From: Ruminococcus albus 7 = DSM 20455
GTDB lineage: Bacteria; Bacillota; Clostridia; Oscillospirales; Ruminococcaceae
DNA: 32,000 bases
Direction of reading: 5' to 3'
NCBI RefSeq assembly: GCF_000179635.2
Contig: NC_014833.1
Span: forward strand, 570,001 to 602,000
Part shown: positions 12,686 through 28,357 of the stretch, one piece after another
How the letters are laid out: each line of letters begins with the position of its first letter
How positions within the stretch are numbered: the stretch's first letter is position 1
Program-made: the position numbers and the translations under genes
The notes under the pieces: model-generated
What the model was told of the DNA's origin: nothing
What the model saw: only the letters and a program-made list of their open reading frames with translations
Database searches by the model: none

Positions 12686-12699
12686 ATTTCTCTCCCGAA

Positions 12700-12717: not shown

Positions 12718-12771
12718 ACTTTCTCCTTTGATTATACTATAATGGATACAGAAAGTCAAGGAGGTATGGCT

Positions 12772-13467
12772 ATGATACGAAAAATCATTGAGATAAACGA
12801 AGAAAAATGCAACGGCTGCGGTCTGTGTGCGAAGGCTTGCCATGAGGGTGCGATCGCTATTGTGAACGGCAAGGCTAAGCTCATGCGTGACGATTTCTGC
12901 GACGGCTTCGGTGAGTGTCTCCCTGCCTGTCCTATGGACGCTATCCACTTCACCGAGCGTGAAGCGGCGGCTTATGACGAAAAGGCTGTACAGGCAAGCA
13001 AGCAGAAGAAGTCCGCTTGCAGCGGTTTCACCTGTCCGGGTTCTGCATTGCAGAGCTTTACGCCAAAAGAAGATGACAGCGATGTTCGTGTTCCAAGCTG
13101 TCTGAGACAATTCCCGATACAGATAAAGCTCCTGCCCACAAATGCACCTTATTTCAACGGTGCTGATCTGCTGATTGCTGCCGATTGTACAGCTTACGCT
13201 TACGGAAACTTCCACCATGATTTTATCAAAGGCAGGATAACGCTCATCGGCTGTCCGAAGCTCGATGCCGTTGATTACGCTGAAAAGCTGACGGAGATAT
13301 TCCGTAATAACGATATAAAGAGTATTACTCTCACAAGAATGACAGTGCCGTGCTGCGGCGGTATGGAGTATGCGATAAAAAAAGCAATCGAAGCAAGCGG
13401 TAAGGATATTCCGCTTAAAATTGCAGTCATCTCGCCGGACGGCAGTATCGTTGAGATAAGAAAATAA
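12772..13467 (+). CDS. 4Fe-4S dicluster (ferredoxin-type) domain protein, co-transcribed with hcp
   Basis: [16 protein letters not shown] and [16 protein letters not shown] are two CxxCxxCxxxCP motifs. An AAGGAGG RBS lies 7 nt upstream of ATG 12772; in-frame ATGs at 12742 and 12766 are less well placed. Confidence 0.8.
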
Positions 13468-13481
13468 TGGAGGAATATATC

Positions 13482-15110
13482 ATGGAACAGAAAATGTTTT
13501 GCTATCAGTGTCAGGAAACAGCGGGCTGTAAAGGTTGTACCGCTTGCGGTGTCTGCGGTAAACAACCCGAAGTCGCAGTAATGCAGGACTTGCTTGTGTA
13601 CGTTACAAAGGGATTGTCTGCGGTGACAACTCAGCTCCGTGCAGAGGGAAAGACTGTCGATAAGACTGTTAATCATCTTATCAGCGTGAACCTGTTTATC
13701 ACGATCACCAATGCCAATTTCGATCTTGACAGTATTACCACTAAGGTTACTGAAACACTTGCAGTCAAAGAAGAATTGCTCGGACAGGTGCAGAATAAAG
13801 AATCACTCCCCGAAGCAGCTTTTTGGAACGGTTCGGACTATACCGAGAAAGCAAAGACTGTCGGCGTACTTGCAACAGAGAATGAGGATATACGCTCTCT
13901 GCGTGAGCTGATAACCTACGGTCTGAAAGGACTTGCGGCATATACAAAACACGCAAACGCTCTGCTGAATGATGATGAGAAGCTTGATGCTTTCTTACAG
14001 TCGGCTCTTGCTAAAACACTTGATGACAGTCTGTCGGTCGATGACCTTGTGGCTCTCACGCTGGAAGTCGGCAAGTACGGCGTTCAGGGTATGGCTGACC
14101 TTGATGCTGCAAATACTACAGCATACGGCAATCCTGAGATCACGACAGTTGATATCGGTGTCCGCAAAAATCCTGCAATACTGATCTCAGGTCACGATCT
14201 GAAAGACCTTGAAATGCTCCTTGAACAGACAAAGGACACGGGAGTTGATGTTTATACGCACTCGGAAATGCTGCCTGCGCATTATTATCCGTTCTTCAAA
14301 AAGTATCCGCATTTCGCAGGAAACTACGGCAATGCGTGGTGGAAGCAGAAAGAGGAATTTGAGAGCTTTAACGGTCCGGTGCTGATGACCACAAACTGCA
14401 TCGTTCCGCCGAAGGACAGCTACAAGGACAGGCTTTGGACAACAGGTGCCGCAGGCTATCCGGGCTGTAAGCATATTGACGCACCCTACGGCGAAGTAAA
14501 GGATTTCTCGCCGATCATCGAACAGGCTAAGAAATGTCCTCCGCCTACCGAGATCGAAACAGGCTCCATAATCGGCGGGTTTGCCCATGAACAGGTATTT
14601 GCACTTGCCGATACAGTTGTAGAAGCTGTAAAATCAGGGGCTATCCGCAAATTCGTAGTCATGGCAGGCTGTGACGGCAGAGCGAAGTCCAGAAGCTACT
14701 ATCAGGAATTCGTAGAGAAACTGCCGAAGGATACGGTCATTCTCACCGCAGGCTGTGCGAAGTACAAGTATAACAAGCTGGATCTTGGTGACATCGGCGG
14801 TATTCCGAGAGTTCTCGATGCAGGACAGTGCAATGATTCTTATTCTCTGGCGCTTATCGCTCTGAAGCTGAAAGAGGTATTCGGGCTTGATGATGTAAAT
14901 GATCTGCCTATTGTTTATAATATCTCTTGGTATGAGCAGAAAGCAGTCATCGTTCTCCTTGCTCTGCTGTATCTCGGAGTGAAGAATATTCACCTCGGAC
15001 CGACACTGCCTGCGTTCCTGTCTCCGAATGTGGCAAAGGTTCTTGTAGACAGCTTCGGCATTGCAGAAATTACAAACGTTGACGAGGATATGAGGATTTT
15101 CGGCTTATGA
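13482..15110 (+). CDS. hcp: Hybrid-cluster protein (hydroxylamine reductase / NO-detoxifying Hcp)
   Basis: The N-terminal cubane motif is [23 protein letters not shown]. The length is about 540 aa with conserved blocks ([21 protein letters not shown]). A GGAGG RBS lies 8 nt upstream of ATG 13482. Confidence 0.93.
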
Positions 15111-15883
15111 GAAGAAAAGACCGTGAAGTGACCGAGCTCAGCGAGATCATAGAGATCATGAAAAACTGCGATGCATGAAGACTGGCTCTGAATGATGACG
15201 GCTTTCCGTACATTCTGCCGCTGAATTTCGGTATGGCTGTAAACGGAAACGGAGCAATATCAATTTCAAAAGCTTATCTTGAGGGCGGTGCAAGCTTCCA
15301 AGATGAAACAGCACCTATCAGGGGGAATGTAAGGTTCGGTGAAAATACCTGCCGCAACCTTGTAACAGGTAAAGGGAACACCACCGATAAGAGCGAATTC
15401 TACTGGTTCGGCACAGGAGATGCAAACGGCATTATCCCACAGATCGATAAGACCCTCGCACAGATACCTCAGAATACTTTTGCAGTACCGAAAATCACAT
15501 ATAAAAACGGCAATGGCTTTGTAAATCTCACATGGACAGAGATCGATAACGCCGAAAAGTACGCTGTGTGCGGATACGCAGGTGGAAAATGGAAAATACT
15601 CGGCGAAGGTTACGGCACTTCTTTCACGCTTGACGATCTCAAATCTGGAACTGATTACAAGGTTGCTGTTATCGCAAAAATAAACGGAGAATGGAACATG
15701 GATTTCTCTAACGCCGTTGTGGTTTCTGTCGCTAAAAATGTATATCCAAAGGTGACAGCTGTTGAATACAGCGAGGAGTTTCATCAGTTCAGAATGAAAT
15801 GGACATCTGTTCCCAATGCTGAACAGTACGGTATCGCCGTAAAGCTTACAGGCAAACAATCGGCTCTAACGATACTATTATAA
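15107..15883 (+). pseudogene. Chimeric gene scar: the N-terminus of a PNPOx-like (Pyridox_ox_2) protein with an in-frame TGA, fused to a fragment of a secreted protein carrying one complete and one truncated Fn3-like module
   Basis: [44 protein letters not shown] is the typical N-terminus of PNPOx-family genes found after hcp. The stop is at 15176-15178, where a Cys is expected. After NFG the same frame continues into unrelated sequence and then the modules VPKITYKNGNGFVNLTWTEIDNAEKYAV... and YPKVTAVEYSEEFHQFRMKWTSVPNAEQYGIAVKLTGK, which end prematurely. Confidence 0.7.
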
Positions 15884-16107
15884 CCTTACGAAAAATATTC
15901 GTCAAGATAGCAAACAAAATATGTATATATTTCGACATTATACACAAAACAAAAGTTAAGCGTAAAACAGGTTTTTTATAAATGAACTGTTGCAATAAAA
16001 ACGCCTGTTTACGCCATTTGAGCTCATTTGAATAAAGGCTGGAAATAACTGTAAGAACACCTTTACGATGAATATTTTACAGAATATTAAACGTAAATAT
16101 AAATACA

Positions 16108-16137
16108 CCGTCTTTCGTTCATACAAGCGAAAGACGG
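16108..16137 (-). terminator. Terminator of the ABC exporter operon
   Basis: A 10-bp perfect stem (ccgtctttcg / cgaaagacgg) lies 19 nt downstream of the permease stop. The minus strand is T-rich after it. Confidence 0.6.
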
Positions 16138-16155
16138 CGGTAAAAGAAAGTAAAT

Positions 16156-18873
16156 CTATTCTCTGTTTTTAAGCACCTCGGCGGGGGTTATCCGCTTCAG
16201 CTTTCCTGTCAGCAAAGCAGTGCTGAAAAAGTATACCGCAAGCACTGCGACGTACAGTATCAGGTAAAGATATAGCGGAAAATCCAGCGCCATTGAGCAG
16301 GCAACATTCGGTATAAAACTCGGATAGATGCAGTCCATCAGGAATTTCGCCAGCGGTATGCATATCAGCCCGCCGACGGATACGATGAAAAGATTGCCGT
16401 TTAAGTACAGTCTGCGCACCTCTTTCGGGCAGTAGCCGAATATCTTCATAAGGGAGATACCAAAGGAACTGCGGTCTATCATCACGCCCATCATAAGGTA
16501 CATCACTACGACAAATATCACCGTTCCCGCGATCAGCAGAGTGTATACCAGCGGCTTCATCTGCTCTGTGAAAACGCCCGAACTCTTTTCGATATCAGCC
16601 GCGGTGGTGACGCTGTAAAGTCTGCCCGCATCGATATCAAGTTCATCTGCGGAATAGACAGCGTTGAAGTAGTCTTCGTCCTCGCCGAAAAGTTCACGCA
16701 TGGAGCCTATATCCATAAAGATCGTGAACCCCGGGGAATACTGCGCGATATCCGTCACGGTGAAAGTGTAGTCGCGGTCAGCCGCAGCATCGGTGAAAGT
16801 CACCCTGTCGCCGATATCATAGCCGAAACGCTGAACTAGGGAGTTGTTGATTACTGCCTTATTCACGCCCTTTTCAGGGTCAGCATCGAAGTACCTGCTG
16901 TTCTCGTTCAGACCGATCACCGTCACATCAAGGGTATGCCCCGTGGAGTCAGTGGAAAGTGTCTTGATGAAAGCGCTCTCTCCTCCTGTGGGGACTTCCT
17001 TTTCGGGATACTTATAGAGATACATATAGCCGTACTGTGTATCGGCTACGTTGTCATGCTTTACTGCCTGACACATCACCATACAGTCAAGACCCAGCAT
17101 CACCACCATCAGGGAGACCAGCATACCGAGGATAACCGTCACCGCCGAACGCAGTTCTCGCACCATCTGCCTTACACGGAACAGGGTCATAAAGTTTTTC
17201 GACCTGATATTGAATCTGCGGTAGTTTGAAGCGCTCTGTTCGTTTTTGATGAGGGAAAGTGCAGTCCTCGAAAGCTTGCTGTTTATCACAAGTGCATTAA
17301 CGATCGCCGAGATGATCGGTGGCAGTACAAGCCCGTACACAAGCAGATATGGCGCATAGCAGATATCGTACTGCGGCAGTGAGAAATAGCCATAGCTTGT
17401 CTGTAACCGCATACCGATGCCGACGGGTGAAAATCCAAGTGCTGTGCCGATTACTCCGCCGATGAATGCTATCAAAGTCGGAAGAGCTATGTAATGCCGC
17501 AGAAGGTCTTTTTTCTTAACACCCAGAGCGTACAGCGCACCGATGACAGGGGCTTCGCTCTCAACGCGGTGTACCACGAAAACAGATATCACGTAGCCGA
17601 AAAGGATAAGGACGATAACTCCCGCCGCAAGACCCGCGTTCTTGTCCATTATCACATCGTCTGCCGCGGCTTCTATGCGCTCGTTATCGCCGCGGGAAAC
17701 GAATGACACAAGGTTCCCGATGTCGATATCGAAAGCCGCATCAAGCAGTTCGTCAATTCCATCACGCAGTTCACGTGCGCCGCTGTTCAGTTCGGCTGAA
17801 CCCTCTTTTGCTTTGCCGACAGCGTCTGTGTACTCCGCAAGACCGTCACGGTAAGCGATTATACCCGAAATGCTGTCTTTCAGGTTTTTCAGTTCTTCTG
17901 ACTTTGATATCTTTATCAGCCTGTCAAGTTCTTCGGCGTAGTTTTCTTCCCTCAGTGTGACATTCATTCCTGCCGCTGACAGCTTTTCATTCGCCTGCGC
18001 AAAATAGGCATCAACAAGCTGCTGTGAAGCAGTTTTAAGTTCAGCACTGTGAGACTCCAGTTCGGTCATGCCGTCACTGAGTTCGGCAGTACCATCAGTC
18101 AGGGAGTTGACTCCGTCCTCTATCCTGCGTCTGTCGGAGAGGAGATCATCGATAGTTTCACGGAAATATTTATCCTCGACTTTCATATGATCAAGCTTGA
18201 CAGCGCGTATCTTCTCTTTCAGGTCATCATCGGTGACATCAGCCCCCAGCTTGTAGGCGTAGACATACTCCTCTGCGGTCAGACCGCCCTCGGCGCGGAT
18301 ATCCTCATAGCAATCATCCGTGACAAAAATAAGCCCGAAATACCGCGATTGCACAGCGGTATCGGAAAACTTTGCTTTCGGCTGATCGTAATCGGGCACA
18401 GTACCTATACCCGTGACCGTGAATCCATGTCCGCCCGCTGTTATGCTGTCCCCGATCTTCACGCCGTTTTCTGCGGCATAGCGCTTTTCGAGAATGCACT
18501 CCCCTGATTTTTCGGCAAGCCTGCCCTCATCGAGAATGATCTTATCGATATTTTCGCGGTTTTTGAACATTCTGAGCACGGTGTCCTCATCAACTGAAAG
18601 GTCGGTGTAGAACTCCGCCTGTATCTCGGTACCGCCCTCGGCAAGGGTATCGATCTCACTGTCGTTAAGGGGCAGAAACACTGTGAAGAAGCCGTCCTCG
18701 GTGTTGAATTCAGCCCGCTTTTCGACTGTGCCGTGCAGAACTGTTTCAGCAGAACCGACGATGCCCAGCACCAGAAAAATGCCCATGGCGATGACCAGTA
18801 TCAGGGCGGTATAACGCCCTATCCCTGCCCTGAGATCGCGGGGCAGACGCTTTTTAAGCACTCTGTTCATCAC
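16156..18873 (-). CDS. FtsX/MacB-type ABC transporter permease (905 aa, duplicated FtsX domains, large extracytoplasmic and coiled-coil region)
   Basis: It has an N-terminal TM segment (YTALILVIAMGIFLVLGIV), a long extracellular segment, two clusters of FtsX-type TM helices, and a 4-nt ATGA overlap with the upstream ATPase gene. Confidence 0.85.
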   Translation of the reverse strand: MMNRVLKKRLPRDLRAGIGRYTALILVIAMGIFLVLGIVGSAETVLHGTVEKRAEFNTEDGFFTVFLPLNDSEIDTLAEGGTEIQAEFYTDLSVDEDTVLRMFKNRENIDKIILDEGRLAEKSGECILEKRYAAENGVKIGDSITAGGHGFTVTGIGTVPDYDQPKAKFSDTAVQSRYFGLIFVTDDCYEDIRAEGGLTAEEYVYAYKLGADVTDDDLKEKIRAVKLDHMKVEDKYFRETIDDLLSDRRRIEDGVNSLTDGTAELSDGMTELESHSAELKTASQQLVDAYFAQANEKLSAAGMNVTLREENYAEELDRLIKISKSEELKNLKDSISGIIAYRDGLAEYTDAVGKAKEGSAELNSGARELRDGIDELLDAAFDIDIGNLVSFVSRGDNERIEAAADDVIMDKNAGLAAGVIVLILFGYVISVFVVHRVESEAPVIGALYALGVKKKDLLRHYIALPTLIAFIGGVIGTALGFSPVGIGMRLQTSYGYFSLPQYDICYAPYLLVYGLVLPPIISAIVNALVINSKLSRTALSLIKNEQSASNYRRFNIRSKNFMTLFRVRQMVRELRSAVTVILGMLVSLMVVMLGLDCMVMCQAVKHDNVADTQYGYMYLYKYPEKEVPTGGESAFIKTLSTDSTGHTLDVTVIGLNENSRYFDADPEKGVNKAVINNSLVQRFGYDIGDRVTFTDAAADRDYTFTVTDIAQYSPGFTIFMDIGSMRELFGEDEDYFNAVYSADELDIDAGRLYSVTTAADIEKSSGVFTEQMKPLVYTLLIAGTVIFVVVMYLMMGVMIDRSSFGISLMKIFGYCPKEVRRLYLNGNLFIVSVGGLICIPLAKFLMDCIYPSFIPNVACSMALDFPLYLYLILYVAVLAVYFFSTALLTGKLKRITPAEVLKNRE

Positions 18874-19571
18874 AAGTCCTCCAGTTCGGCGGCGGGAACT
18901 ATCTTTTCATTTTCGTAGTCCTTTATGATCTGACCGTCCTTGATAACGATGACCTTATGCACCATATTTTTTATGGAGTTATTGTGGGTGACTATCAGCA
19001 TTGTAGTGCCGTACTTTTTGTTTATCTTCTCAAGAAGTATCAGGATATCGCGGGAGGTCTTTGAATCAAGAGCGCCTGTAGGTTCGTCGCAAAGGAGAAG
19101 TTTCGGGTTTTTGATAAGGGCGCGGGCTATTGCACACCTCTGCTGCTGACCGCCCGAAAGCTGCGCGGGGAACTTGTTCTGATGTTCTGTCAGACCCAGA
19201 ACTTCCAGCAGTTCCTCCATATCAAGGGGAGAATCCGTCAGATATCCGCAGACCTGTATATTCTCTCTTACGGTGAGGTTAGGCACCAGATTATAGAACT
19301 GGAAAATAAATCCCAGATAGTCGCGGCGGTAGTCGGAAAGTTCAGCGGGGCGCAGACCGAATATCTCCTTGCCGTCTACCCTGACCGACCCCGAATCCAT
19401 AGTATCAAGTCCGCCGATGCAGTTGAGAAGCGTCGATTTTCCCGAACCGCTTGTACCCTGTATAACGCACATCTGCCCCTTTTCAACGGCGGTGCTGACA
19501 CCTTTCAGCACCTGAATATAGCTTGTGTCTTTGCCGTAGCTTTTCTTGACATCTTGTATCTCTAAAAACAT
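18870..19571 (-). CDS. ABC transporter ATP-binding protein (MacB/LolD-type)
   Basis: Walker A GTSGSGKST, signature LSGGQQQR, Walker B LLLCDEPTGALD, H-loop VTHN. Confidence 0.92.
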   Translation of the reverse strand: MFLEIQDVKKSYGKDTSYIQVLKGVSTAVEKGQMCVIQGTSGSGKSTLLNCIGGLDTMDSGSVRVDGKEIFGLRPAELSDYRRDYLGFIFQFYNLVPNLTVRENIQVCGYLTDSPLDMEELLEVLGLTEHQNKFPAQLSGGQQQRCAIARALIKNPKLLLCDEPTGALDSKTSRDILILLEKINKKYGTTMLIVTHNNSIKNMVHKVIVIKDGQIIKDYENEKIVPAAELEDL

Positions 19572-19649
19572 TTTTGTTTCCCCTTTCTAAGGTTAGAATA
19601 AGCTAACTAAAGTATATGATATAATGCGGGATAACCGCAGAATATCACG

Positions 19650-20279
19650 TCACACATCGTCTTCCAATGAATACTCCATCCACGCTTTTATCAGCAGATC
19701 CATAACGGGCTTTATGAAATGCAGAGCGCTGTCTCTGTTTTTTTCGTGCTGCATCATATGTATGAAAGCGTTTATCTGCACATGGGTCAGCCAGTGGAGC
19801 ATTTTTCTGTTGACCCGCTTGTTCGGCACGCAGGCGGCGTACTTTTCCGCAAGGGCGATATATGAGCTGTCCAGCTTATCGATAATGCCGTCAACGAATC
19901 TTTCGTACTTTGACCCTGCCGAACGGTCGAGGAGTATCGTCATCTCATCGTAGTGGTCATAGATGACATTTACGAGGGCTTCGCTGAAATCATCGTGGTC
20001 GCCGCTGTGATGCTCATATGTCAGCAGGTCGGCTTCTATATCGCGGGCGAAGTGGTTTTCAAGCACTGCATTCAGCCGAGCCAGTGCTTCACCCACCACG
20101 CCCTCAAACAATCCGTTTTTGTCTCCAAAAAAGAAGTATACAGCACCCGTAGTCAGCCCCGCCTCCGAGGATATTTTTCTGAGAGAAGCCTTCGTAAAGC
20201 CCTTTTCAAGGAACTCTCTTTTTGCGCACTCTACAAGCTTTTCGCGGCTCTCTTTATTATCTGTGATCTTTTCCGACAT
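19650..20279 (-). CDS. TetR/AcrR-family transcriptional repressor
   Basis: The N-terminal TetR HTH is KLVECAKREFLEKGFTKASLRKISSEAGLTTGAVYFFFGDKNGLF. It is the first gene of the tetR-ABC operon, and a GGAGG RBS is present. Confidence 0.88.
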   Translation of the reverse strand: MSEKITDNKESREKLVECAKREFLEKGFTKASLRKISSEAGLTTGAVYFFFGDKNGLFEGVVGEALARLNAVLENHFARDIEADLLTYEHHSGDHDDFSEALVNVIYDHYDEMTILLDRSAGSKYERFVDGIIDKLDSSYIALAEKYAACVPNKRVNRKMLHWLTHVQINAFIHMMQHEKNRDSALHFIKPVMDLLIKAWMEYSLEDDV

Positions 20280-20296
20280 GGTGTGTCCTCCTCTTG

Positions 20297-20349
20297 ATAA
20301 CAGTGTTACGTAACACTGTTATTTTAACTCATATTTGTTAGTTTGTCAA
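20297..20349 (-). promoter_or_regulatory. Promoter of the tetR-ABC operon with an overlapping perfect 26-bp palindromic operator
   Basis: On the minus strand: TTGACA (20349-20344), a 17-nt spacer, then TAAAAT (20326-20321). The palindrome ATAACAGTGTTAC|GTAACACTGTTAT (20297-20322) runs from the -10 region (2-nt overlap) across the expected transcription start. Confidence 0.7.
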
Positions 20350-20567
20350 GTTGGATCGGGGAGATTTGGTTATTTTGACTAAAATTATTTCGACGGTATG
20401 TGGCGGACGGAGTGGGGCTGGCCGATGGTTTTGTTTTGTGGGCATCGGTTTGCGAGTTCTGCAACAAAATCCTATCTCCAGCTCTCCGAGCTTACCAAAC
20501 GGCTATCGTTTTTCCTTTCTGAAATATGGTTATTAACCATTATATCATATTTCCGAATAAATTAAAA

Positions 20568-20615
20568 GACGGTATTCTCCCGGACACAAGGTCTGGAAGA
20601 TACCGTTTTGTTTTT
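20568..20615 (+). terminator. Orphan two-tier hairpin plus T tract (terminator-like) with no upstream gene
   Basis: The outer stem is acggtat / ataccgt, the inner stem is ccggac / gtctgg, and TTTTGTTTTT follows. The only upstream plus-strand ORF (20351-20536) looks non-coding. Confidence 0.5.
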
Positions 20616-20652
20616 GGTTTATCGCTGTTGTTTTTTCAGGAGCATTCTGCCC

Positions 20653-20771
20653 TGACAAATATAGTGGTCATCTTGACAAAATAGAGTGTCTGCACCTTGA
20701 CAGAACGAGTGCCTGCGTGACAAGATACGTTCACTTCTGGATGACAAATAAGGGGAGTGGTAATATTGACT
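20653..20771 (+). repeat. Six phased TGAC-core direct repeats: five TGACA(A/G)(A/G) copies at 20-25 bp spacing, with the sixth (TGACTT) lying in the -35 of the downstream promoter
   Basis: TGACAAA at 20653, TGACAAA at 20674, TGACAGA at 20698, TGACAAG at 20718, TGACAAA at 20742 and TTGACT at 20766. Several copies extend to TGACAAAWAKAGTG. Confidence 0.55.
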
Positions 20772-20795
20772 TTTATCGTTCTTTTGTGTTATAAT
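20766..20795 (+). promoter_or_regulatory. Promoter of the 80-aa membrane peptide gene
   Basis: TTGACT (20766-20771), an 18-nt spacer, and an extended -10 TGTTATAAT (20787-20795). An AAAGGAGG RBS follows at 20819-20826. Confidence 0.6.
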
Positions 20796-20836
20796 GTATA
20801 AAATCAAAAAGAACAGTAAAAAGGAGGTAAACTATC

Positions 20837-21079
20837 ATGTTGACGATCATATTTAATATTCCGGTGTTAATAGGCGTGTTCATTGTTGCTCTTTTCTTTT
20901 TTGCAGCAAGTAAAAGTAAAGCCATTAAGGTTGTGTCAGCAATCGTCATGGTGCTTACGGCTGCATCGATTTTAAGACTTCTGGTATTTACGCTTTCGAT
21001 GATTATAAGAGTTCTTTTGCCATTAATCATTATCATAGGTATCATATATGCAATTTATACTATAAAGAAAAAGAAGTGA
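20837..21079 (+). CDS. Small hydrophobic membrane protein, 80 aa (three predicted TM helices, KKKK tail)
   Basis: Strong RBS, own promoter and own terminator. The sequence MLTIIFNIPVLIGVFIVALFFFAAS...LLPLIIIIGIIYAIYTIKKKK is almost entirely hydrophobic. Confidence 0.65.
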   Translation: MLTIIFNIPVLIGVFIVALFFFAASKSKAIKVVSAIVMVLTAASILRLLVFTLSMIIRVLLPLIIIIGIIYAIYTIKKKK

Positions 21080-21085
21080 AATTCA

Positions 21086-21116
21086 AAAGGCAAGTTTGCA
21101 GCTTGCCTTTTTTATT
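21086..21116 (+). terminator. Rho-independent terminator of the membrane peptide gene
   Basis: aaggcaag-tttgcag-cttgcctt followed by a T run, immediately after the stop codon. Confidence 0.7.
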
Positions 21117-21978
21117 TTTACGGATAGTTTATCGTTGCCGTAGTATGACATCACCAAATCGATTGTTTATGGACATAAAAACAAGACCATGTATGAAAAA
21201 AATTTCTACATGGTCTTGCTTTTTGGTAAGGAAAGTCTTTCCGAGTGTGGATTTTTTATCGAATACTAAAATACAATATGTTATTTATTAACTTTGATAT
21301 TTAGATATAAAATATTATATATTGTATTTTATAAATATGCTGTGTATTGCTTTTTATATGTATTATATCTCATGCTTATTATCATGCAGATCGTTTGGTG
21401 CATGAAAGAATATTAAAACGAAAATACAGCCGCCGGGCAAAGAAAATATAAAACATAGATGCAGCTCTGCTCTCTTGTAAGGTGTCTAAAAATTAGACAG
21501 TAAAAAATCCTATCGTTTCATCCTACCTTCATTACATTTTTCCGTCATACTTCAAAATCAACCACCCACGAATACATTTCTCTAATACTCCGTTATTTTT
21601 CTGTATAAAAGAAAAGACCCCGCATAACGCTGAACCATAGGAGGCTCTTTTGTCATTGTAAGTTTTTACTGGCACGGTTCAAAAGATTGGTCGCTTTTGT
21701 TATGAAGCATTGAATCTATATTCATAAGGAGATAAATCATCAAGGAAAAGTTCCGCTCCGCAAATCGGCAAACTTGCATTTTTTAGTCATTTTACAGGTC
21801 TGATTAAGATCAACAATATCATATTTTTTTCAGTTCTTTATACGAGCAAAACTATTCGGATATCGGATTTTCCTAGAATCAATACTCAAAAAGAACAATT
21901 GGACAGATAAAGATTTATATGATAAAATAAAAAACATGGTAAATTGATCTGAAAACAAGGAAAGGGCTGAATTGAAAA

Positions 21979-23043
21979 ATGAAAAGATCAAAAGCATTAT
22001 TGGCATCGCTGCTGTTAGTTTTTTCATTAACAGGCTGTGCGGGAAAAAATGCATCGGCAGTTAGTTCACAAGAAAATGCTGATTCTTTGAAAATAGGCTA
22101 CCTGCCGTCCCCGGGGCATCTTCTCTATTTTGTTGCACAGGAGGAGGGCTTATTCAAAGATGAAGGGCTGAACACAGAGCTTGTTATGTTCGGTGAGAAC
22201 AATAGTGAACTTGCAGCTCTTGAATCAGGGAAGATAGACGTTGGTGCGTTTGGTTCAAGCGAACTAGTAACATATCTCGGTGACGGACATGAAATAACCG
22301 TGTTCGGCGGTGCTATGATCGCAGGTCACGGACTTATCGTCAAGCCTGAGTTAGTTGAGGGGATACCAGAGGAGGATTGGTCTCTGGATCTTCTTAAGGG
22401 CAAAAATATAGGCGTTGAGGGTGTTGACTCTGGATATATCGTTTATCGTTCGGCTGCAAAAAAACTGGGGCTTGAAGATTCAATAGAATTCAGTATATTT
22501 GCTGACGGAGCGGATGCTTACAATTCTCTGAAAAACGATGATATTGATGCGGCTATACTTTACGCACCTTACCGTATCCTTGCAGAGGACGAGGGCTATG
22601 TCATTCTTTCAAACAGCGGTACAGTATCAGGCTTTGAAGATCATGTCTGCTGCCGACAAGCTTCACTTACATCTTCACTTGAGAAAGATCCGGATACTTA
22701 TGAAGCATTCCTTCGTGCGCTTATCCGTGCATACCATTTTTATAAGACAGAACCCGACAAGACTATCAAGGATGTTCAGAAATATGTAGATGTGGATGAA
22801 GGATCACTCAGAAAAGACACATATGATTATGACAGCCAGATAGCAAATCCTGATCCTGATATCACAGGTATGACGAATTTTTATGATGCGCTTGTAGATA
22901 CCGGCTTTGTAAATGAGTTTGATATATCACATGGACTTTCCGCCGAGCTTTATGACAAGGCACTGAACGCTGTTGCTGCAGAAGATCCCGACGATGAGGT
23001 GTATAAATATCTTCTTGATTATCATAAGGAGAGAGACAAATGA
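21979..23043 (+). CDS. ABC transporter substrate-binding lipoprotein, NMT1/THI5-SsuA family (sulfonate/nitrate/taurine-type)
   Basis: The lipoprotein signal is MKRSKALLASLLLVFSLTGC (lipobox LTGC). The mature domain begins SLKIGYLPSPGHLLYFVAQEEGLFKDEGL, which is typical of the NMT1/SsuA periplasmic binding fold. Confidence 0.8.
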   Translation: MKRSKALLASLLLVFSLTGCAGKNASAVSSQENADSLKIGYLPSPGHLLYFVAQEEGLFKDEGLNTELVMFGENNSELAALESGKIDVGAFGSSELVTYLGDGHEITVFGGAMIAGHGLIVKPELVEGIPEEDWSLDLLKGKNIGVEGVDSGYIVYRSAAKKLGLEDSIEFSIFADGADAYNSLKNDDIDAAILYAPYRILAEDEGYVILSNSGTVSGFEDHVCCRQASLTSSLEKDPDTYEAFLRALIRAYHFYKTEPDKTIKDVQKYVDVDEGSLRKDTYDYDSQIANPDPDITGMTNFYDALVDTGFVNEFDISHGLSAELYDKALNAVAAEDPDDEVYKYLLDYHKERDK

Positions 23044-23960
23044 AAAGGGTCAAACGACTGCTCTCAGTGACACATATTTTATTTCTTGCCGCATTATTTA
23101 TACAATTTATGCCTTCACATACCAAAAAAATTGGAGATCCTAAATATTCTGCGGGATTGCTTTTGATATTGGAGATCGCTTATATCATACTTATCTTATT
23201 AAGGAGAAAGCAGGACAGAATTAAAACAACAAACGGTGTTTTTGGTGTGATATTTTCATTTATCGGGATATGGACGCTGCTTACTGCGAAATTTGTGCTT
23301 ATTCCGCAGGACATATTCAAGGCTCCCGATGTCGTGACCGAACAGTTTGTCAGCGATCTTCCTCGGTTAATGAATGATCTGGCTGTAAGTATGATAACGA
23401 TAACAACAGGATACGTACTTGCACTTATAACTGCGATACCGATAGGCTTATTCCTCGGCTGGAACGCACAGGTAGGTAAAGTAGGTGAGCAGATCGCTAA
23501 TTTTCTAGGCTCCATCCCACCTATCGTGTTTATTCCCTATACACTAGCTCTTCTGCCCACATTCAAAAGCTGCTCTATATTTGTTATTTTTATTACAGCT
23601 TTCTTTCCAATATTATCAGGAACGATGAGTGGAGTACAGAACATAAACAAAACTACTATTGAAAGTGCAAAGATATTCTGCCCGTCAAAAACGTATATGC
23701 TTTACAGTGTTCTGCTGCCTGCTTCGTTGCCGCAGATATTTGACGGCTGTAATATGGGATTGCTCCTGTCTTTTATCCTTCTCACTTCGGCAGAAATGAT
23801 AGGCGGAAACAGTGGTATCGGATTCTATATCCAGTACTACACCAATTTCGGAAATTTTACAAGAATAATGGTCGGTATCGTTTTTCTCGGAACGATCGTA
23901 ACTTTAGTCACTAATCTGGTGAAAGCAATTGAAGCGCGATTTCTGCGCTGGAAAAATTAG
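23040..23960 (+). CDS. ABC transporter permease (SsuC/TauC-like BPD_transp_1 family)
   Basis: There is an ATGA overlap with the binding-protein gene. It has about 7 TM helices and an EAA-type loop IESAKIFCPSKTYMLYSVLLPASLPQIFDG. Confidence 0.85.
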   Translation: MKRVKRLLSVTHILFLAALFIQFMPSHTKKIGDPKYSAGLLLILEIAYIILILLRRKQDRIKTTNGVFGVIFSFIGIWTLLTAKFVLIPQDIFKAPDVVTEQFVSDLPRLMNDLAVSMITITTGYVLALITAIPIGLFLGWNAQVGKVGEQIANFLGSIPPIVFIPYTLALLPTFKSCSIFVIFITAFFPILSGTMSGVQNINKTTIESAKIFCPSKTYMLYSVLLPASLPQIFDGCNMGLLLSFILLTSAEMIGGNSGIGFYIQYYTNFGNFTRIMVGIVFLGTIVTLVTNLVKAIEARFLRWKN

Positions 23961-23984
23961 TGATATTCAAAGGGAGAAAAAACT

Positions 23985-25553
23985 ATGGCTAAAAATATAC
24001 AACTTGATCTTGAAACAGTTCAGAACCGTGAAATGCGTCTTGGTTCGATAATATCATGGGACGGAAAAGCATCTGAACTTGTTGAACTGTCTCGTTATGA
24101 GGAACGTGCGCTCAGACATAAGGGAGAATGTCCTGGTGCAGGAAAAAACGGCGAAGGATGCCGTTTATGTGAACTTAATATGCCCTTTAACCAACAGAGT
24201 ATGTGTGCAAACTCCATAGCAGCCTGCCAGGCAGGTAATATCCGTGACTGCGTACTTATTCAGCATTCACCTGTGGGCTGTACAGCCAGAAATCCGGAAT
24301 TTAATCTTGCATTTCGCAATGGTCTGGAACGCCGCGGCATAGAACCTCGAAATATAAACATCATGACTACCAACCTTCTTGAAAATGACATGGTATTCGG
24401 TGCATCTGAAAAGCTGAAAAGAGCAGCAAGAGAAGCTTTTGAACGCTATAACCCAAAGGCTATATTCTTCTCTATGAGCTGTTCCACTGCGATAATAGGT
24501 GAAGACCTCAGCAGTATCGCAGCTGAGATGGAAGACGAACTTGGGATACCTGTTGCACCTATGCAGTGCGAAGGATTCCGTTCAAAGCACTGGTCAACAG
24601 GATTTGATATCTCACAGCACGCTGTCCTGAGACATATTGTAAATAAGAATCCGAAAAAGCAGCCAGATCTTATTAATATCGTCGCACTTTGGGGTACGGA
24701 TTATTTTACCGATATGCTCAAACCACTTGGGCTGAGAGTAAACTATATCATGGATATAGCAAGTTTTGACGAGCTTGCACAGACATCTGAAGCGGCTTGT
24801 ACTTCAACATTCTGTCATACTCTCGGTTCTTATTTTGCAACCGCTCTTGAAGAGGCTTATGGTGTACCACAGATAAGAGCTCCTCAGCCATACGGTTTTG
24901 CAGGTACGGATGCATGGCTTCGTGCTATCGCAAAGCAGGTAGGAAAAGAGAAAGAAGCAGAAGAGTATATCGCTGCCGAGCATGAACGTGTACGACCCAA
25001 AATAGAGGAACTGAAAGAAAAGCTTAAAGGCGTCAACGGTTTTGTGCTGACAGGTTCTTCTTATGCACATGGTCTTATATCTGTACTTCGTGATCTTGGT
25101 GTAACAGTTGATGGTTCTGTCGTATTCCATCATGATCCTGTATACGATGGAGGTTATGAAGAGCAGAACACACTGAAGACCCTTGTAGATAACTATGGTG
25201 ATATACCTCACTTTACAGTCAGCAAATGTCAGCCCTTCCAGCTCCCTGCACTTCTCAGCCGAGTGAAAGCAGATTTCATTATCATTCGTCACAACGGACT
25301 TGCTCCAAACGCCGCAAGAATGGGAATACCCTCTTTTGCCATAGGTGATGAACATTTCCCCGTAGGTTATGATGGTATGATACGTGTAGGTGAGGCAGTA
25401 CTTGACGTTCTTGCACGTAAAAAGATGAATCAGGTACTAAAGAGACACGTTGGGCTGCCATATAGTGACTGGTGGCTAAGTCAGAAGGATCCGTTTATTC
25501 TTGCAAAGCACCCCGAGGTGCTCGATGAAACTACTAAGGAGGTGCAGGACTAA
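23985..25553 (+). CDS. Nitrogenase component-1 alpha-like subunit (NifD/NifE-like, Oxidored_nitro family)
   Basis: By-eye alignment to A. vinelandii NifD: MCANS...HSPVGC (GCAYAG...HGPVGC), SCSTAIIGEDL (ECPIGLIGDDI), CEGFRS (CEGFRG), FCHTLGSYFATALEEAYGVPQ ([21 protein letters not shown]), GIPSFAIGDEHFPVGYDG ([21 protein letters not shown]). Confidence 0.85.
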   Translation: MAKNIQLDLETVQNREMRLGSIISWDGKASELVELSRYEERALRHKGECPGAGKNGEGCRLCELNMPFNQQSMCANSIAACQAGNIRDCVLIQHSPVGCTARNPEFNLAFRNGLERRGIEPRNINIMTTNLLENDMVFGASEKLKRAAREAFERYNPKAIFFSMSCSTAIIGEDLSSIAAEMEDELGIPVAPMQCEGFRSKHWSTGFDISQHAVLRHIVNKNPKKQPDLINIVALWGTDYFTDMLKPLGLRVNYIMDIASFDELAQTSEAACTSTFCHTLGSYFATALEEAYGVPQIRAPQPYGFAGTDAWLRAIAKQVGKEKEAEEYIAAEHERVRPKIEELKEKLKGVNGFVLTGSSYAHGLISVLRDLGVTVDGSVVFHHDPVYDGGYEEQNTLKTLVDNYGDIPHFTVSKCQPFQLPALLSRVKADFIIIRHNGLAPNAARMGIPSFAIGDEHFPVGYDGMIRVGEAVLDVLARKKMNQVLKRHVGLPYSDWWLSQKDPFILAKHPEVLDETTKEVQD

Positions 25554-26890
25554 TGGCTAAGAAAAAACATACAACGATCACTCATCCCCACTATGCGTGT
25601 GCCATTGGTGCGGCATATACAGTATCGGCTATCCCGGGGGCAGTTCCAGTGATCAACTGCGGTCCCGGATGCGTGGATCAGCAGTATTTTACAATGTCAT
25701 TCTGCAACGGCTTTCAGGGTTCGGCAGGTGCAGGCGGAGGCGATATCCCGGGTACTAATTCGGGAGAAAGTGAGATCGTTTTCGGCGGTGCAAAGAAACT
25801 GGACGGAGTTATAAAGTCAGCTCTGAAGATCATGAAAGGCGATCTGTTCGTAGTTCTGTCAGGCTGTTCTCCACAGCTTGTGGGAGATGATGTCGCATCA
25901 GTAATAAAACCATACCGCGAACAAGGGTATCCCATAGTTCATGCAGAGGTTCCCGGATTTAAGGGAAATAACCTGTGGGCACACGAGGAAGTCATTATTG
26001 CGATAATAGACCAGTTTGTGGGAGAAGCAAAGGGTATACGCCGCCGCAAGAAGCTTATCAATCTATGGATGGGAGCGCCTTACTTCAATACATTCTGGCG
26101 TGGAGATATCATTGAGATAAAACGTATACTCGAAGCCGCAGGCTTTGAAGTTAATGTGTTCTTCGGCAGTGAAAGCGCAGGTGTTTCAGAGTGGAAGAGT
26201 ATCCCGAAAGCAGCCTTTAATCTTGTGCTTTCTCCGTGGCTTGATCTGAAGGTAGCTAAACATCTTGAAAAAAAATACGATCAGCCTTATCTGCATATAC
26301 CTGTTATCCCTGTCGGTGAGGAGGCAACAACTGCTTTCCTGCGTCAGGTTGTGGAATTTGCAGATATAGATAATACAAAGGCTGAGAAATTCATAGAAAA
26401 GGAAGCAAAAAGATACTATTACTTCTTGGACCATTTTGCAGACTTTTTCGCAGAATACTGGTTCGGATTCCCTTCAAAGTTTGCTATTGTCGGAGATGCG
26501 GCATATAATATTGCACTTTCAAAATTCCTTGCAGACCAGTTGGGACTGATACCTGTAGGACAGATAATTTCAGATAATACTCCGGTCAAATACCGAGAAG
26601 ATGTTGCTGCTCTTTATACCGAGCTTTCCGAAGGTGTATACGGAAACGTTGAGTTTATTGAAGACGGTTATCTCATAGAGAAGAAATTATCTGGATTTGA
26701 TTTCGGAAACAGTACACCGCTTATCCTCGGTTCTTCATGGGAGCAGGATGTTGCAAAGGAAAAGAATGCCGTGCTGGTGGAAGTCGGTACAATAGCTACA
26801 GAGGAAGTAGTTCTGAACCGTACATATATCGGATATACTGGAGCACTTCAATTCATTGAAAAAGTTTATTCCGCAGCGGTCAGCGGTTAA
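25553..26890 (+). CDS. Nitrogenase component-1 beta-like subunit (NifK/NifN-like)
   Basis: A 1-nt TAATG overlap with the alpha-like gene and an AAGGAGG RBS. YACAIGAAYTVSAIPGAVPVINCGPGC parallels NifK ACQPLGA...HGSQGC. SGCSPQLVGDDV parallels TCMAEVIGDDL. Confidence 0.85.
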   Translation: MAKKKHTTITHPHYACAIGAAYTVSAIPGAVPVINCGPGCVDQQYFTMSFCNGFQGSAGAGGGDIPGTNSGESEIVFGGAKKLDGVIKSALKIMKGDLFVVLSGCSPQLVGDDVASVIKPYREQGYPIVHAEVPGFKGNNLWAHEEVIIAIIDQFVGEAKGIRRRKKLINLWMGAPYFNTFWRGDIIEIKRILEAAGFEVNVFFGSESAGVSEWKSIPKAAFNLVLSPWLDLKVAKHLEKKYDQPYLHIPVIPVGEEATTAFLRQVVEFADIDNTKAEKFIEKEAKRYYYFLDHFADFFAEYWFGFPSKFAIVGDAAYNIALSKFLADQLGLIPVGQIISDNTPVKYREDVAALYTELSEGVYGNVEFIEDGYLIEKKLSGFDFGNSTPLILGSSWEQDVAKEKNAVLVEVGTIATEEVVLNRTYIGYTGALQFIEKVYSAAVSG

Positions 26891-26905
26891 AATGTAGATA
26901 ACAAT

Positions 26906-26941
26906 AAAGCCTGAAAGCAGATAAAAACGCTTTCAGGCTTT
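26906..26941. terminator. Bidirectional terminator shared by the nif-like operon and the convergent lysR gene
   Basis: A 13-bp perfect stem (aaagcctgaaagc / gctttcaggcttt) with a 10-nt loop, flanked by A and T runs. Confidence 0.75.
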
Positions 26942-26945
26942 ACTA

Positions 26946-27866
26946 CTATTCTCGTAATTCAAGCTCTTTTCTTACTTCTTCAAGAAATCTTTTTCCCATA
27001 CTGCTAAGCTCGTTGTTTTTTTTGGTGATATATCCTATATTCATACTGCTCTGGATATTATCATCATCCTTGAAAGGTATCACAATGAACTGATCTCCAC
27101 AGAGTTTTTCGGAGTATATGCTCGAACACAATGTATATCCGTTCAGTCCTTCCATCAGATTCATCATTGTCGCACGGTCTGTAGCCTTGACTGTTTTCTG
27201 ATATGCGTGTTCGATAAGTATCTCCTCGGCAAAATATATCTCGTCCTCGTTACCCTGTTCAAATGACAGACAAGGATACGGGTCAAGCTGTTCAAAACCA
27301 AGCTCTTTTTCCTTTGCAAGCGGATGTGATCTTGCAAGATAAACACTTGCGGAACATACGATAAGTGAATGAAATTCTAGCTCGTTCTTTCGCAGCAACT
27401 TGTTTATCATACGCTGATTGGTATCACAGGTATAGATGATGCCTATCTCGCTTTTCATTGTACTAACGTCTTTTATCACATTTGCAGTTGCGGTTTCTCT
27501 CAGTGCCAGGTCAAATTTGTTAGAGTCGTAATGTTTTGCCATTTCTATGAAAGCCTTGACTGCAAAGGAGTAGTGCTGCATCGAAACAGCAAAGCGACGT
27601 CTGATATTCGTTTCCTCGCCGTATTCTTCCATTACATCTTCATACTGTTGATATACACGTTTTATCTTTTGTAAAAATTCATCTCCCTCGGCTGTCGGAA
27701 TAACACCTTTATGAGTACGGTGAAATATCTGTATTCCAAGCTCATTTTCCACATCACGCACAGCTCCGGTAAGTGTGGGTTGAGCTATGAATAATTTTTC
27801 AGCAGCCTTGTTCATTGATCGTGATTCAGCTATGGTAAGAAGATAATTGATCTGTTGTAAAGTCAT
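26946..27866 (-). CDS. LysR-family transcriptional regulator
   Basis: The start is chosen at MTLQQINYLL (GAGGTG RBS 9 nt upstream). The HTH is LQQINYLLTIAESRSMNKAAEKLFIAQPTLTGAVRDVENELGIQIFHRT, followed by a LysR substrate-binding domain. Confidence 0.88.
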   Translation of the reverse strand: MTLQQINYLLTIAESRSMNKAAEKLFIAQPTLTGAVRDVENELGIQIFHRTHKGVIPTAEGDEFLQKIKRVYQQYEDVMEEYGEETNIRRRFAVSMQHYSFAVKAFIEMAKHYDSNKFDLALRETATANVIKDVSTMKSEIGIIYTCDTNQRMINKLLRKNELEFHSLIVCSASVYLARSHPLAKEKELGFEQLDPYPCLSFEQGNEDEIYFAEEILIEHAYQKTVKATDRATMMNLMEGLNGYTLCSSIYSEKLCGDQFIVIPFKDDDNIQSSMNIGYITKKNNELSSMGKRFLEEVRKELELRE

Positions 27867-27945
27867 AAAATAAAGCACCTCGCAAAACAATCATAAGAAT
27901 AAATTTAAATTGCATTTTCATGAGTATATTATAACGTAAAAAATC

Positions 27946-27967
27946 TACTAATACAATATGATTAGTA
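27946..27967. promoter_or_regulatory. Inverted repeat TACTAAT-N8-ATTAGTA upstream of lysR (candidate autoregulatory box)
   Basis: Read directly. It lies 80-100 bp upstream of the lysR start. T-N11-A-type dyads are typical LysR sites. Confidence 0.35.
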
Positions 27968-28199
27968 TGAATATATATTAAATTATATCACAATTAACCT
28001 TATGAAGTTCATAGAAATCAATATGGCACATCAGCAACAGCTTGACAGCATCAAAAATTACATAAGTGATGTCAAGAAAACCGCTTCATTGGATAGTGAC
28101 AGCACCGAAATCTATGGTGAGCTTTTGAAGAAGGTAATAGCTCATGAAAATAAAACTGCTGCCTTTTATTTGAACTATGTATCGTTCGGATTCAGGATA

Positions 28200-28357
28200 A
28201 CATTTGCCGATGCAAGACGGCTCATTGATGATTACATCTATTTTTACAATCACTAGCGCATTCAACTCAAAAAAACTGACTCCGCTTGAATTGCGAAGTC
28301 AGTTTTAATTTGCCATAGGGGCTTTTTGGTGTTGTACGCACAATGTGGTGCGGTTCA
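28200..28357 (+). mobile_element. Right-end remnant of an IS3-family element: decayed transposase C-terminus plus terminal inverted repeat ending ...GGTTCA
   Basis: ARRLIDDYIYFYNH-stop-RIQLKK, then after a frameshift LTPLELRSQF-stop, matches the conserved IS3/IS150 OrfB tail (...Y..YYNHERIQ..L..L(T/S)P.EYR.Q). The reverse complement of 28328-28357 begins TGAACCGCACC, an IS3-type TG terminus. Confidence 0.5.

Follow-up and report, generated by a model that had tools for sequence, protein, structure and literature searches.

The function of methylthio-alkane reductase (Mar) has been known since 2020, and its structure was published in 2025. PDB entry 9FMG is the MarDK2H2 complex of Rhodospirillum rubrum, and 9D9U, with a near-identical sequence, is probably the same enzyme. 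According to the literature, Mar expression in R. rubrum requires the LysR-type regulator SalR at low sulfate. Mar homologues have been reported mainly in Pseudomonadota and Bacillota, and MAR systems were described as 'likely present in Clostridia, Fibrobacter and Negativicutes'. It has already been noted that such homologues lie among sulfur genes and genes for sulfonate transport. In Rhodopseudomonas palustris, the paralogous D/K pairs Mar2 and NflDK3 share 52-65% identity with canonical Mar, keep all cluster ligands, are induced by sulfur limitation and are embedded among sulfur-assimilation and transport genes (bioRxiv 10.64898/2026.08.20.746119). A further nitrogenase-like system, the isethionate reductase (Isr, group IV-F) IsrBHDK of Rhodobacter capsulatus, performs anaerobic organosulfur assimilation and is functionally linked to an importer of the SsuABC type (ssuCAB), whose regulation it shares. 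Here, these systems are compared with a locus of Ruminococcus albus 7 = DSM 20455. It lies in a stretch of 32,000 nucleotides (contig NC_014833.1, positions 570,001 to 602,000), referred to as the window, and consists of the four-gene operon Rumal_0520-0523 and the convergent LysR-family gene Rumal_0524. The operon encodes a substrate-binding protein (SBP) and a permease of an ATP-binding cassette (ABC) importer, followed by two nitrogenase-like proteins, D and K.

By exact sequence, the five proteins are ADU21072-ADU21076 of R. albus 7 (ATCC 27210), where they bear only the labels 'NMT1/THI5-like', 'binding-protein-dependent transport', 'LysR family' and, twice, 'nitrogenase component 1'. The present analysis re-annotates the 'nitrogenase component 1' genes of this model rumen cellulose degrader as part of a Mar-type sulfur-salvage system. 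Judged by sequence, D and K are a Mar-type catalytic component and not a nitrogenase, a NifEN scaffold or an unplaced 'group IV and beyond' enzyme, since the cluster ligands and the Mar hallmark and active-site residues are conserved. The operon as a whole is probably a LysR-controlled module of sulfur or methionine salvage, in which a MarDK-type C-S reductase would work with partners encoded in trans and would be switched on by sulfur limitation. This reading is preferred because D and K are far closer to Mar than to any nitrogenase, because relatives have genes of sulfur and methionine metabolism on the flanks of the cassette, and because the LysR box and promoter are shared with metK and with cysteine and methionine (Cys/Met) genes. 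The original prediction, made from the DNA alone, had already proposed organosulfur salvage by a reductase of an imported molecule under LysR control rather than N2 fixation; the Mar-like pair, the sulfur context, the shared LysR-box element and the co-expression of the genes all agree with it. It had also called the architecture functionally uncharacterised. This holds insofar as the sister clade described below has not been assayed; the novelty was overstated insofar as Mar homologues of Bacillota and their sulfur context are in the literature. Indeed, the locus is less novel than it was framed, because the Mar family is known, an Fe protein is encoded elsewhere in the genome, both the association with importers and loci with only D and K recur in the family, and co-expression data exist.

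The homology to Mar extends over both catalytic subunits. Searched against all PDB sequences, the D subunit matched 9fmg_A and 9d9u_A over its full length with 655 bits, and any NifD, NifE, VnfD or AnfD with at most 143 bits. The K subunit reached 545 bits with MarK (9d9u_C/9fmg) and at most 70 bits with VnfK or NifK. None of the NCBIfam equivalog cutoffs for nitrogenase, NifEN, DPOR and CfbD was reached by either protein, all scores being far below (NifD 145 against 654, NifE 153 against 505, NifK 88 against 427 and NifN 33 against 327). Mar had been listed in the original prediction as one distant comparison; the assignment to nitrogenase-like enzymes stands, the distance does not, as D is a full-length Mar homologue with 57% identity to R. 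rubrum MarD and all the hallmarks.

The residues that bind the metal clusters are identical to those of R. rubrum Mar. The P-cluster cysteines Cys74, Cys99 and Cys166 of D correspond to Cys66, Cys91 and Cys158 of R. rubrum and are present in all 91 aligned sequences. The ligands of the [Fe8S9C] L-cluster, Cys277 and His436, together with Arg435, correspond to Cys270, His429 and Arg428 and are invariant in the 91 family members; His436 was placed in the segment 'IIIRHNG' by residue counting against 9FMG. The Arg428-His429 'Loop I' was proposed as the hallmark that tells Mar from nitrogenases (PMC12552129). In the active site, Cys81-Gln82, His202, Trp203, Phe207, Phe381 and His383 match Cys73-Gln74, His194, Trp195, Phe199, Phe374 and His375 of R. 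rubrum, and this HWSFFH pattern is kept in all but five of the 91 sequences. Where NifD has the residues needed for N2 reduction (Val70, Gln191 and His195), R. albus D has Cys-Gln, Trp and Phe, as in Mar. In the K subunit, every cysteine of the aligned N-terminal region is conserved with MarK.

Among all solved proteins, D is nearest to Mar, from which it is nonetheless set apart. In a neighbour-joining tree with 200 bootstraps, built with references other than those of groups IV-D, IV-E and IV-F, R. rubrum MarD (group IV-C) groups (100% bootstrap) with the second D/K pair of Clostridium kluyveri and Candidatus Clostridium eludens, to which it is 70% identical. R. albus D falls in a sister clade of 23 taxa (99.5% bootstrap). 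The canonical substrate channel is formed by Met70, Cys73, Tyr98 and Ile101 (M-C-Y-I) in R. rubrum MarD and in the clostridial paralogue grouping with it; R. albus D has Ile, Cys, Phe and Ala, so that three of the four residues differ. The sister clade comprises the channel types I-C-F-A/G, M-C-L-S and I-T-I-T. The R. palustris study ties these four positions to the differing specificities of the isozymes Mar1 and Mar2 (bioRxiv 10.64898/2026.08.20.746119). Both the R. albus type and the canonical type of D/K are found within one super-cluster of C. kluyveri, which argues for different substrates. By sequence, R. albus D/K thus belong to a clade beside Mar whose substrate channel is distinct, an experimentally untouched branch of a known family. 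Compared by description, Mar2 and NflDK3 differ in that close homologues were reported only in Alphaproteobacteria and in that the Mar2 channel is I/S/S/F; NflDK3 resembles the R. albus locus in consisting of D and K only, beside a transporter.

The mar-like module is also found outside the Bacillota. The gammaproteobacterium Succinivibrio dextrinosolvens (loci L012 and L021) carries the same module of LysR, ATPase, SBP, permease, D and K, and its MarD is 76-77% identical to the Ruminococcus protein, closer than many Clostridia. This suggests, from sequence similarity, that the module may have moved horizontally among rumen bacteria.

The four genes are tightly packed. The SBP and permease genes overlap by ATGA, the permease and D genes are separated by 24 nt, the D and K genes overlap by TAATG, and a Shine-Dalgarno-like sequence precedes each start at these junctions. 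Downstream, the convergent stop codons of the K and LysR genes are separated by a perfect 13-bp inverted repeat (26906-26918 and 26929-26941) with a 10-nt loop. Its RNA fold has an energy of -22.5 kcal/mol (z = -7.98), and none of 200 shuffled sequences was equally stable, as would suit a putative bidirectional terminator. The structural claims of the original prediction were borne out: the coordinates and junctions are exactly as given, the 13-bp stem and the HTH_1 and LysR domains of the convergent gene were recovered, both nitrogenase component-1 homologues match PF00148, and the first two genes match families of binding lipoproteins (with the lipobox LTGC) and of sulfonate/nitrate/taurine-type permeases in Pfam and NCBIfam.

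The cassette is the sole block that blastn of the window found in common between R. albus strains and related Ruminococcus genomes. The window is 97.9% identical to locus L014 over 21471-27986, 91% identical to R. albus AR67 (L015) over 21794-27885 and 79% identical to the related locus L016 over 22088-27890. In R. albus 8 and AR67, the proteins of the same cassette share 94-99.6% identity. The flanking DNA differs from genome to genome; hence the cassette behaves as a self-contained module.

The operon is preceded by a predicted promoter (Table 1). In a consensus scan, it gave 10 of 12 matches plus the TG of the extended -10, leaving a predicted leader of about 43 nt before the ATG. In six aligned loci, with flanks that are otherwise unalignable, the -35 element ATTGGACA is invariant and the extended -10 (TGnTAnAAT) is conserved. 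About 22 nt upstream of this -35 lies a TATC-N9-nAnA element, which has the shape and placement that a T-N11-A box of the LysR type should have. All six loci agree in the TATC and in parts of the second half-site, and one of them (L019) has a perfect TATC-N9-GATA dyad. LysR would bind at this candidate operator.

The combination of box and promoter proved informative. As a composite regular expression, it gave 37 matches in the fetched loci (1.24 Mb in total) and 2.05 in shuffled sequence, an 18-fold enrichment, with a spacing that was nearly always 45 nt. The LysR half-site alone was not enriched in the window (11 matches for 6 expected), so that only the composite element carries information. 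It precedes SBP-permease-MarDK operons, MarDK paralogues, nifX-marB-marH units and the LysR gene itself, as well as metK (three loci) and genes of Cys/Met enzymes dependent on pyridoxal phosphate (PLP; two loci). By its distribution, the element defines a predicted methionine/sulfur regulon of Ruminococcus to which the R. albus operon belongs. Rfam gave no riboswitch or leader RNA in the 900-bp AT-rich gap upstream of the operon at gathering thresholds, and sub-threshold noise in E-value mode.

Rumal_0524 is the probable regulator of the operon. Homologues with 63-89% identity adjoin Mar-like loci in many Ruminococcus genomes, and a nearby LysR-family regulator and a sulfur-metabolism context are shared with the R. 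rubrum system. In its role, it would be a good analogue of SalR. Between the LysR gene and the small divergent open reading frame (ORF) Rumal_0525, an inverted repeat ACTAAT-N8-ATTAGT (27947-27966) could be a LysR autoregulatory site; in L016, the Rumal_0525 ORF is not conserved beside the LysR gene.

Expression data are available for strain 7 in part of the RNA-seq tables of Greening et al., as normalised counts for two pure-culture replicates and two co-culture samples, given here in this order. The counts are 56.6, 1853, 243 and 276 for Rumal_0520; 47.1, 1657, 181 and 221 for Rumal_0521; 74.9, 2434, 265 and 308 for Rumal_0522; and 112, 3545, 379 and 449 for Rumal_0523. In these data, the four genes keep the same proportions in every sample and swing about 32-fold. 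The pattern is followed neither by the upstream genes Rumal_0517-0519 nor by the LysR gene (477, 412, 268 and 272). As far as the tables go, this is direct evidence of co-transcription or co-regulation of transporter and reductase and of strong inducibility. A lack of such co-expression had been named beforehand as evidence against the original prediction; these counts contradict it. The cysteine synthase A gene Rumal_0078 moves in the same direction (8383, 18960, 1254 and 1282), which is consistent with a response to sulfur status and is no proof of it. Rumal_0525 (4.3, 151.7, 12.9 and 16) co-varies with the operon over about 35-fold and may tentatively be counted as part of the system.

A second D/K locus of R. 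albus 7, Rumal_1939-1946, lies outside the window. According to the accessible part of Table S7 of Greening et al. (2019), it comprises an ABC ATPase (Rumal_1940), an NlpA/MetQ lipoprotein (Rumal_1941), an IS110 transposase (Rumal_1942) which interrupts the locus, two 'nitrogenase component 1' proteins (Rumal_1943-44), a cysteine synthase (Rumal_1945) and a NifX-like protein (Rumal_1946). In the same data, it is weakly expressed, with the replicate pattern of the operon.

The locus differs from R. rubrum marBHDK in having neither marH nor marB and in the translational coupling of D/K to the importer genes. Among ORFs of at least 120 aa, no NifH-, NifB-, NifEN- or NifV-like ORF was found in the window, relaxed tblastn detected no remnant of nifX, marB or marH there, and no marH or marB lies in the 10-kb flanks of the cassette in R. 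albus 8 and AR67. The original prediction had claimed that the window has neither nif genes of these kinds nor an ABC ATPase gene. The former holds; the latter does not, as a 233-aa ABC_tran ATPase (119 bits) is encoded at 18870-19571 on the minus strand. This gene overlaps a MacB/FtsX permease gene and adjoins a TetR gene, and is therefore part of a separate exporter-type system. Likewise, the predicted lack of an Fe protein applies to the locus and the window and not to the genome: Greening et al. list in Table S2, in the part available, exactly one NifH-type gene per R. albus genome (Rumal_2437, CUS_5275 and RASY3_00450). A literature search for these three locus tags gave no match, neither the census of Dos Santos (2012) nor the supplement of Christopherson (2014) yielded anything, and a plasmid collection contained no R. 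albus match for MarD or MarH.

The neighbourhood survey that the original prediction had called for covered 78 species-representative loci by local tblastn and showed the SBP-permease-D-K cassette to recur. In L016 (96% MarD identity), genes for a 123-aa NifX-like protein, a 291-aa radical-SAM NifB-type protein and an Fe protein lie divergently and immediately upstream of the cassette. In L018 and L019 (92% MarD identity), nifX-marB-marH genes lie downstream of the same SBP-permease-D-K(-LysR) cassette. Near the cassette, the closest relatives (with MarD 91-96% identical) also encode MetK, PLP enzymes of the Cys/Met type and cysteine synthase. D/K genes lacking H or B in cis are common: where 6 kb or more of flanking sequence is available on either side, they account for 14 of 37, with examples in C. 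pasteurianum, C. tyrobutyricum, R. flavefaciens FD-1 and ND2009, and Succinivibrio.

Some of these genomes offer precedents, by analogy, for sharing components among D/K modules. In Ruminococcus sp. HUN007, one NifX-NifB-Fe protein set and one ABC ATPase occur among two D/K pairs, three SBPs and Cys/Met genes. In Succinivibrio, one locus consists of D/K linked to an importer, whereas related genomes of the genus have another type of D/K in marB-D-K-H loci; both types were recorded on a contig of 288,260 bp. The nifX-marB-Fe protein unit of HUN007 recurs in identical form on a 5.6-kb contig (L093, ENA contig k141_794432), where it adjoins Bro-N and HTH genes and D/K genes are absent. The set for maturation and reduction thus also occurs detached from D/K, possibly in a mobile context.

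The Fe protein of the closest relatives sets them apart from R. rubrum Mar. That of L016 (L016:5545-6402) matches C. pasteurianum NifH with 480 bits against 292 bits for R. rubrum MarH, and is about 82% identical to C. butyricum NifH. By these sequence comparisons, the Fe-protein partner in the clade is NifH-like rather than MarH-like. A further difference is the short NifB-type protein with its separate NifX-like protein. No R. albus entry stands among the top 120 relatives listed for MarH, the top 120 listed for MarB, or the listed members of the largest clusters, which contain R. flavefaciens and HUN007 isolates.

The importer genes are of a known fold and of no closely matching family. The binding protein scores 60 bits with NMT1 and 50 bits with NMT1_2 in Pfam, and 88 bits with the NCBIfam model SsuA_fam, for a cutoff of 163.5. 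Its ligand could not be read from solved structures, as its best match in the PDB, at 34 bits, was too weak, and this approach was dropped. The permease scores 50 bits with BPD_transp_1 and remains under the cutoffs of the NtrB, SaoP and TauC models. The NMT1/SsuA-fold lipoprotein, the BPD_transp_1 permease and a conserved coupling loop are shared with SsuABC and TauABC importers. In contrast to these, the R. albus operon has no ATPase gene, and its proteins score far under every curated equivalog cutoff. No cognate SsuB-type ATPase was found in the operon or in the loci of the Ruminococcus subclade, including members having H and B in cis, so the ATPase appears to be supplied in trans rather than lost by decay. 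Indeed, the ATPase-coupling loop of the permease is conserved whether or not an ATPase gene adjoins, as it does in Succinivibrio, a Lachnospiraceae metagenome-assembled genome (L020), Acetobacterium and Tyzzerella.

Two observations concern the starts of these genes. In the RefSeq re-annotation, the permease is only 237 aa long (WP_242837759.1); with this start, the ATGA overlap would be lost. Residues 1-69 are conserved in L016, L018 and L019 (71-74% overall identity), which supports the 306-aa start overlapping the SBP stop codon. In R. albus AR67, an 8-nt insertion in an A-rich run (L015, about 7988-8000) shifts the SBP ATG out of frame. No in-frame ATG, GTG or TTG occurs before residue 58, and purifying selection acts on the remainder of the gene; the lesion is either real or a homopolymer assembly error.

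Taken together, the proposed route would begin with the import of an organosulfur compound by the lipoprotein and the NitT/TauT-type permease, using an ABC ATPase encoded elsewhere. A MarDK-type heterotetramer with a P-cluster and an [Fe8S9C] L-type cluster would reductively cleave a C-S bond of the imported compound or of a derivative, freeing a thiol such as methanethiol, or sulfide, for assimilation by Cys/Met enzymes. The electrons would come from an ATP-dependent NifH-type Fe protein acting in trans, most probably Rumal_2437, and the cluster would be made by NifB/NifX-type proteins also encoded in trans. The adjacent LysR-type regulator would turn the operon on through the conserved operator/promoter, most likely under sulfur limitation.

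Characterised Mar substrates are volatile and should need no importer, which weighs against this proposal. So do several further points. D is only 57% identical to the characterised MarD, lies in a sister clade and has three of the four isozyme-distinguishing channel residues changed. NflDK3 of R. palustris, which is similarly distant, was inactive on the tested compounds (bioRxiv 10.64898/2026.08.20.746119), and in R. rubrum, other Fe proteins did not replace MarH according to the literature. No NifB/MarB was found in R. albus, with no R. albus protein among the closest MarH and MarB relatives listed.

The importer could also accompany an ordinary Mar isozyme acting on the known substrates (dimethyl sulfide, ethyl methyl sulfide and methylthio-ethanol), and take up a polar precursor such as dimethylsulfoniopropionate or an unrelated sulfur compound of the same regulon. 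The catalytic hallmark residues, all identical to those of R. rubrum Mar, would fit such an isozyme, as would the many members of the clade with no transporter beside D/K and the R. palustris Mar loci that also lie among sulfonate-transport genes (literature). Nevertheless, C. kluyveri and Ca. Clostridium eludens hold an R. albus-type and a canonical M-C-Y-I paralogue, pointing to different substrates, and SBP and permease are translationally coupled to D/K in R. albus and Succinivibrio; an ordinary isozyme is therefore rather unlikely. Indeed, given the volatility of the known substrates, the coupling to an importer and the altered channel are the main hint of a different substrate. Improbable, too, is a sulfonate reductase like Isr fed by an SsuA-like importer. 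The family models that SBP and permease match best are indeed those for sulfonate, taurine and nitrate, and Isr is co-regulated with ssuCAB (literature), but all these transporter matches are far under the curated cutoffs. IsrD, known here by description, lacks the Cys/His ligands of the L-cluster, has divergent P-cluster cysteines (PMC13474568) and is predicted to hold a [4Fe-4S] cluster, whereas R. albus D keeps all ligands and carries the Mar-specific Arg-His loop. The Isr system further differs in that H and B genes and all parts of an ABC transporter belong to it.

Could the cassette be an orphaned, decaying mar remnant that lost its function with marH and marB? The nifX-marB-marH genes that stand beside the cassette in the nearest relatives are absent in three R. 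albus strains, and the AR67 insertion displaces the SBP start codon. Decay is nevertheless very improbable. The genes have no stops or frameshifts in the window, and all are under strong purifying selection. Between R. albus strains, all lacking H and B in cis, the ratio of nonsynonymous to synonymous substitution rates (dN/dS) is 0.010-0.025 for MarD (with dS up to 0.4, and 5 nonsynonymous and 110 synonymous changes against AR67), 0.018-0.043 for MarK, 0.06-0.09 for the permease, 0.04-0.06 for the binding protein and 0.05-0.13 for LysR. Overall, the values for the latter two are 0.04-0.09 and 0.04-0.13. Expression is coordinated and high, with up to about 3500 normalised counts in the available tables. 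A true nitrogenase or a NifEN-type scaffold of a nif regulon elsewhere is hardly credible: although Pfam places both proteins in nitrogenase component 1 and their best NCBIfam matches are the NifD and NifE models, the NifD, NifE, NifK and NifN scores fall far under cutoff and those to Mar are four to five times as high as those to any nitrogenase. Moreover, the N2-reduction residues are replaced as in Mar, the cluster histidine sits on the Mar-specific loop, and the genomic context is sulfur metabolism.

Beyond the salvage module proposed for R. albus, a broader reading may be put forward tentatively, and with somewhat more doubt than confidence. The I-C-F-A/G clade of rumen and gut Bacillota, Succinivibrio and Fibrobacter might be a widespread and functionally distinct branch of C-S or related reductases that act on a non-volatile organosulfur compound brought in by a dedicated importer and share a NifH-type rather than a MarH-type Fe protein in trans among several D/K modules. 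Of the cultured rumen genomes, about 23% carry genes for 'nitrogenases', yet N2 fixation in the rumen is negligible (literature). Mar-like loci offer an explanation for this puzzle, and rumen 'nitrogenases' may need to be reinterpreted as sulfur salvage. As the Fe proteins beside Mar-like loci resemble clostridial NifH, nifH surveys of the rumen and gut would count them as markers of diazotrophs. Should the broader reading be true, much of the 'putative nitrogenase' and nifH signal of the rumen would stand for sulfur salvage, and these enzymes could be a source of methane, ethylene or other hydrocarbons that does not depend on methanogens. The products of Mar-type reactions include methane, ethane or ethylene, so that activity in rumen bacteria would bear on hydrocarbon emission by non-methanogens. 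What is new is the sister clade with its distinct channel and NifH-type partner, which co-occurs with canonical Mar in some clostridia, and the conserved operator/promoter. With this 45-nt signature, the sulfur regulon can be mapped as a whole, together with the missing partners in trans.

Table 1. Features of the mar-like locus of R. albus 7, in positions of the window
Feature	Position	Strand	Details
Conserved module: promoter region, four-gene operon, LysR gene	21471..27986	.	blastn between strains and relatives
Candidate LysR-type (T-N11-A) operator, TATC-N9-TAGA	21861..21877	+	centre about 67 nt before the predicted start of transcription
Predicted promoter	21898..21928	+	-35 ATTGGACA (21898-21905), 17-nt spacer, extended -10 TGaTAAAAT (21920-21928)
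Substrate-binding lipoprotein gene (Rumal_0520, ADU21072)	21979..23043	+	354 aa; NMT1/SsuA family, lipobox LTGC
ABC importer permease gene (Rumal_0521, ADU21073)	23040..23960	+	306 aa; NitT/TauT family, BPD_transp_1
MarD-like catalytic alpha subunit gene (Rumal_0522, ADU21074)	23985..25553	+	522 aa; PF00148, 250 bits
MarK-like beta subunit gene (Rumal_0523, ADU21075)	25553..26890	+	445 aa; PF00148, 206 bits
Hairpin, putative bidirectional terminator, between convergent stop codons	26906..26941	.	13-bp stem; fold energy
LysR-family regulator gene (Rumal_0524, ADU21076)	26946..27866	-	HTH_1 62 bits, LysR_substrate 35 bits
Small ORF Rumal_0525, divergent from the LysR gene	28002..28256	+	84 aa; no Pfam match

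The surroundings of the cassette vary between strains. About 13.5 kb of the window (7914-21471) are missing in R. albus 8, where the GH9 cellulase gene directly adjoins the mar-like cassette. This strain-variable segment contains Imm11-type immunity genes, an IS1595 transposase gene (11095-11970), genes of Crp, ferredoxin and hybrid cluster proteins (12041-15110) and a MacB/TetR unit. The latter (16156-20279, minus strand) is of the exporter type: the MacB/FtsX permease gene (16156-18873, 905 aa) overlaps the ABC ATPase gene and stands beside the TetR regulator. Its expression is very low, with 2-5 counts for Rumal_0517 in the available RNA-seq data of Greening et al.

Closer to the operon, two terminator-like hairpins with T-runs (21085-21111 and about 21182-21218, plus strand) lie 3' of a small hydrophobic ORF (20837-21079). 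They shield the operon from transcription that arrives from upstream and are followed by about 640 bp of AT-rich non-coding DNA with nothing recognisable. The window also holds a FctA/Spy0128-type isopeptide pilin-like protein (122-1600), a tRNA gene (1734-1807) and the GH9 cellulase with CBM4_9 and CelD_N domains (4473-7580), all of which fit a cellulolytic Ruminococcus.

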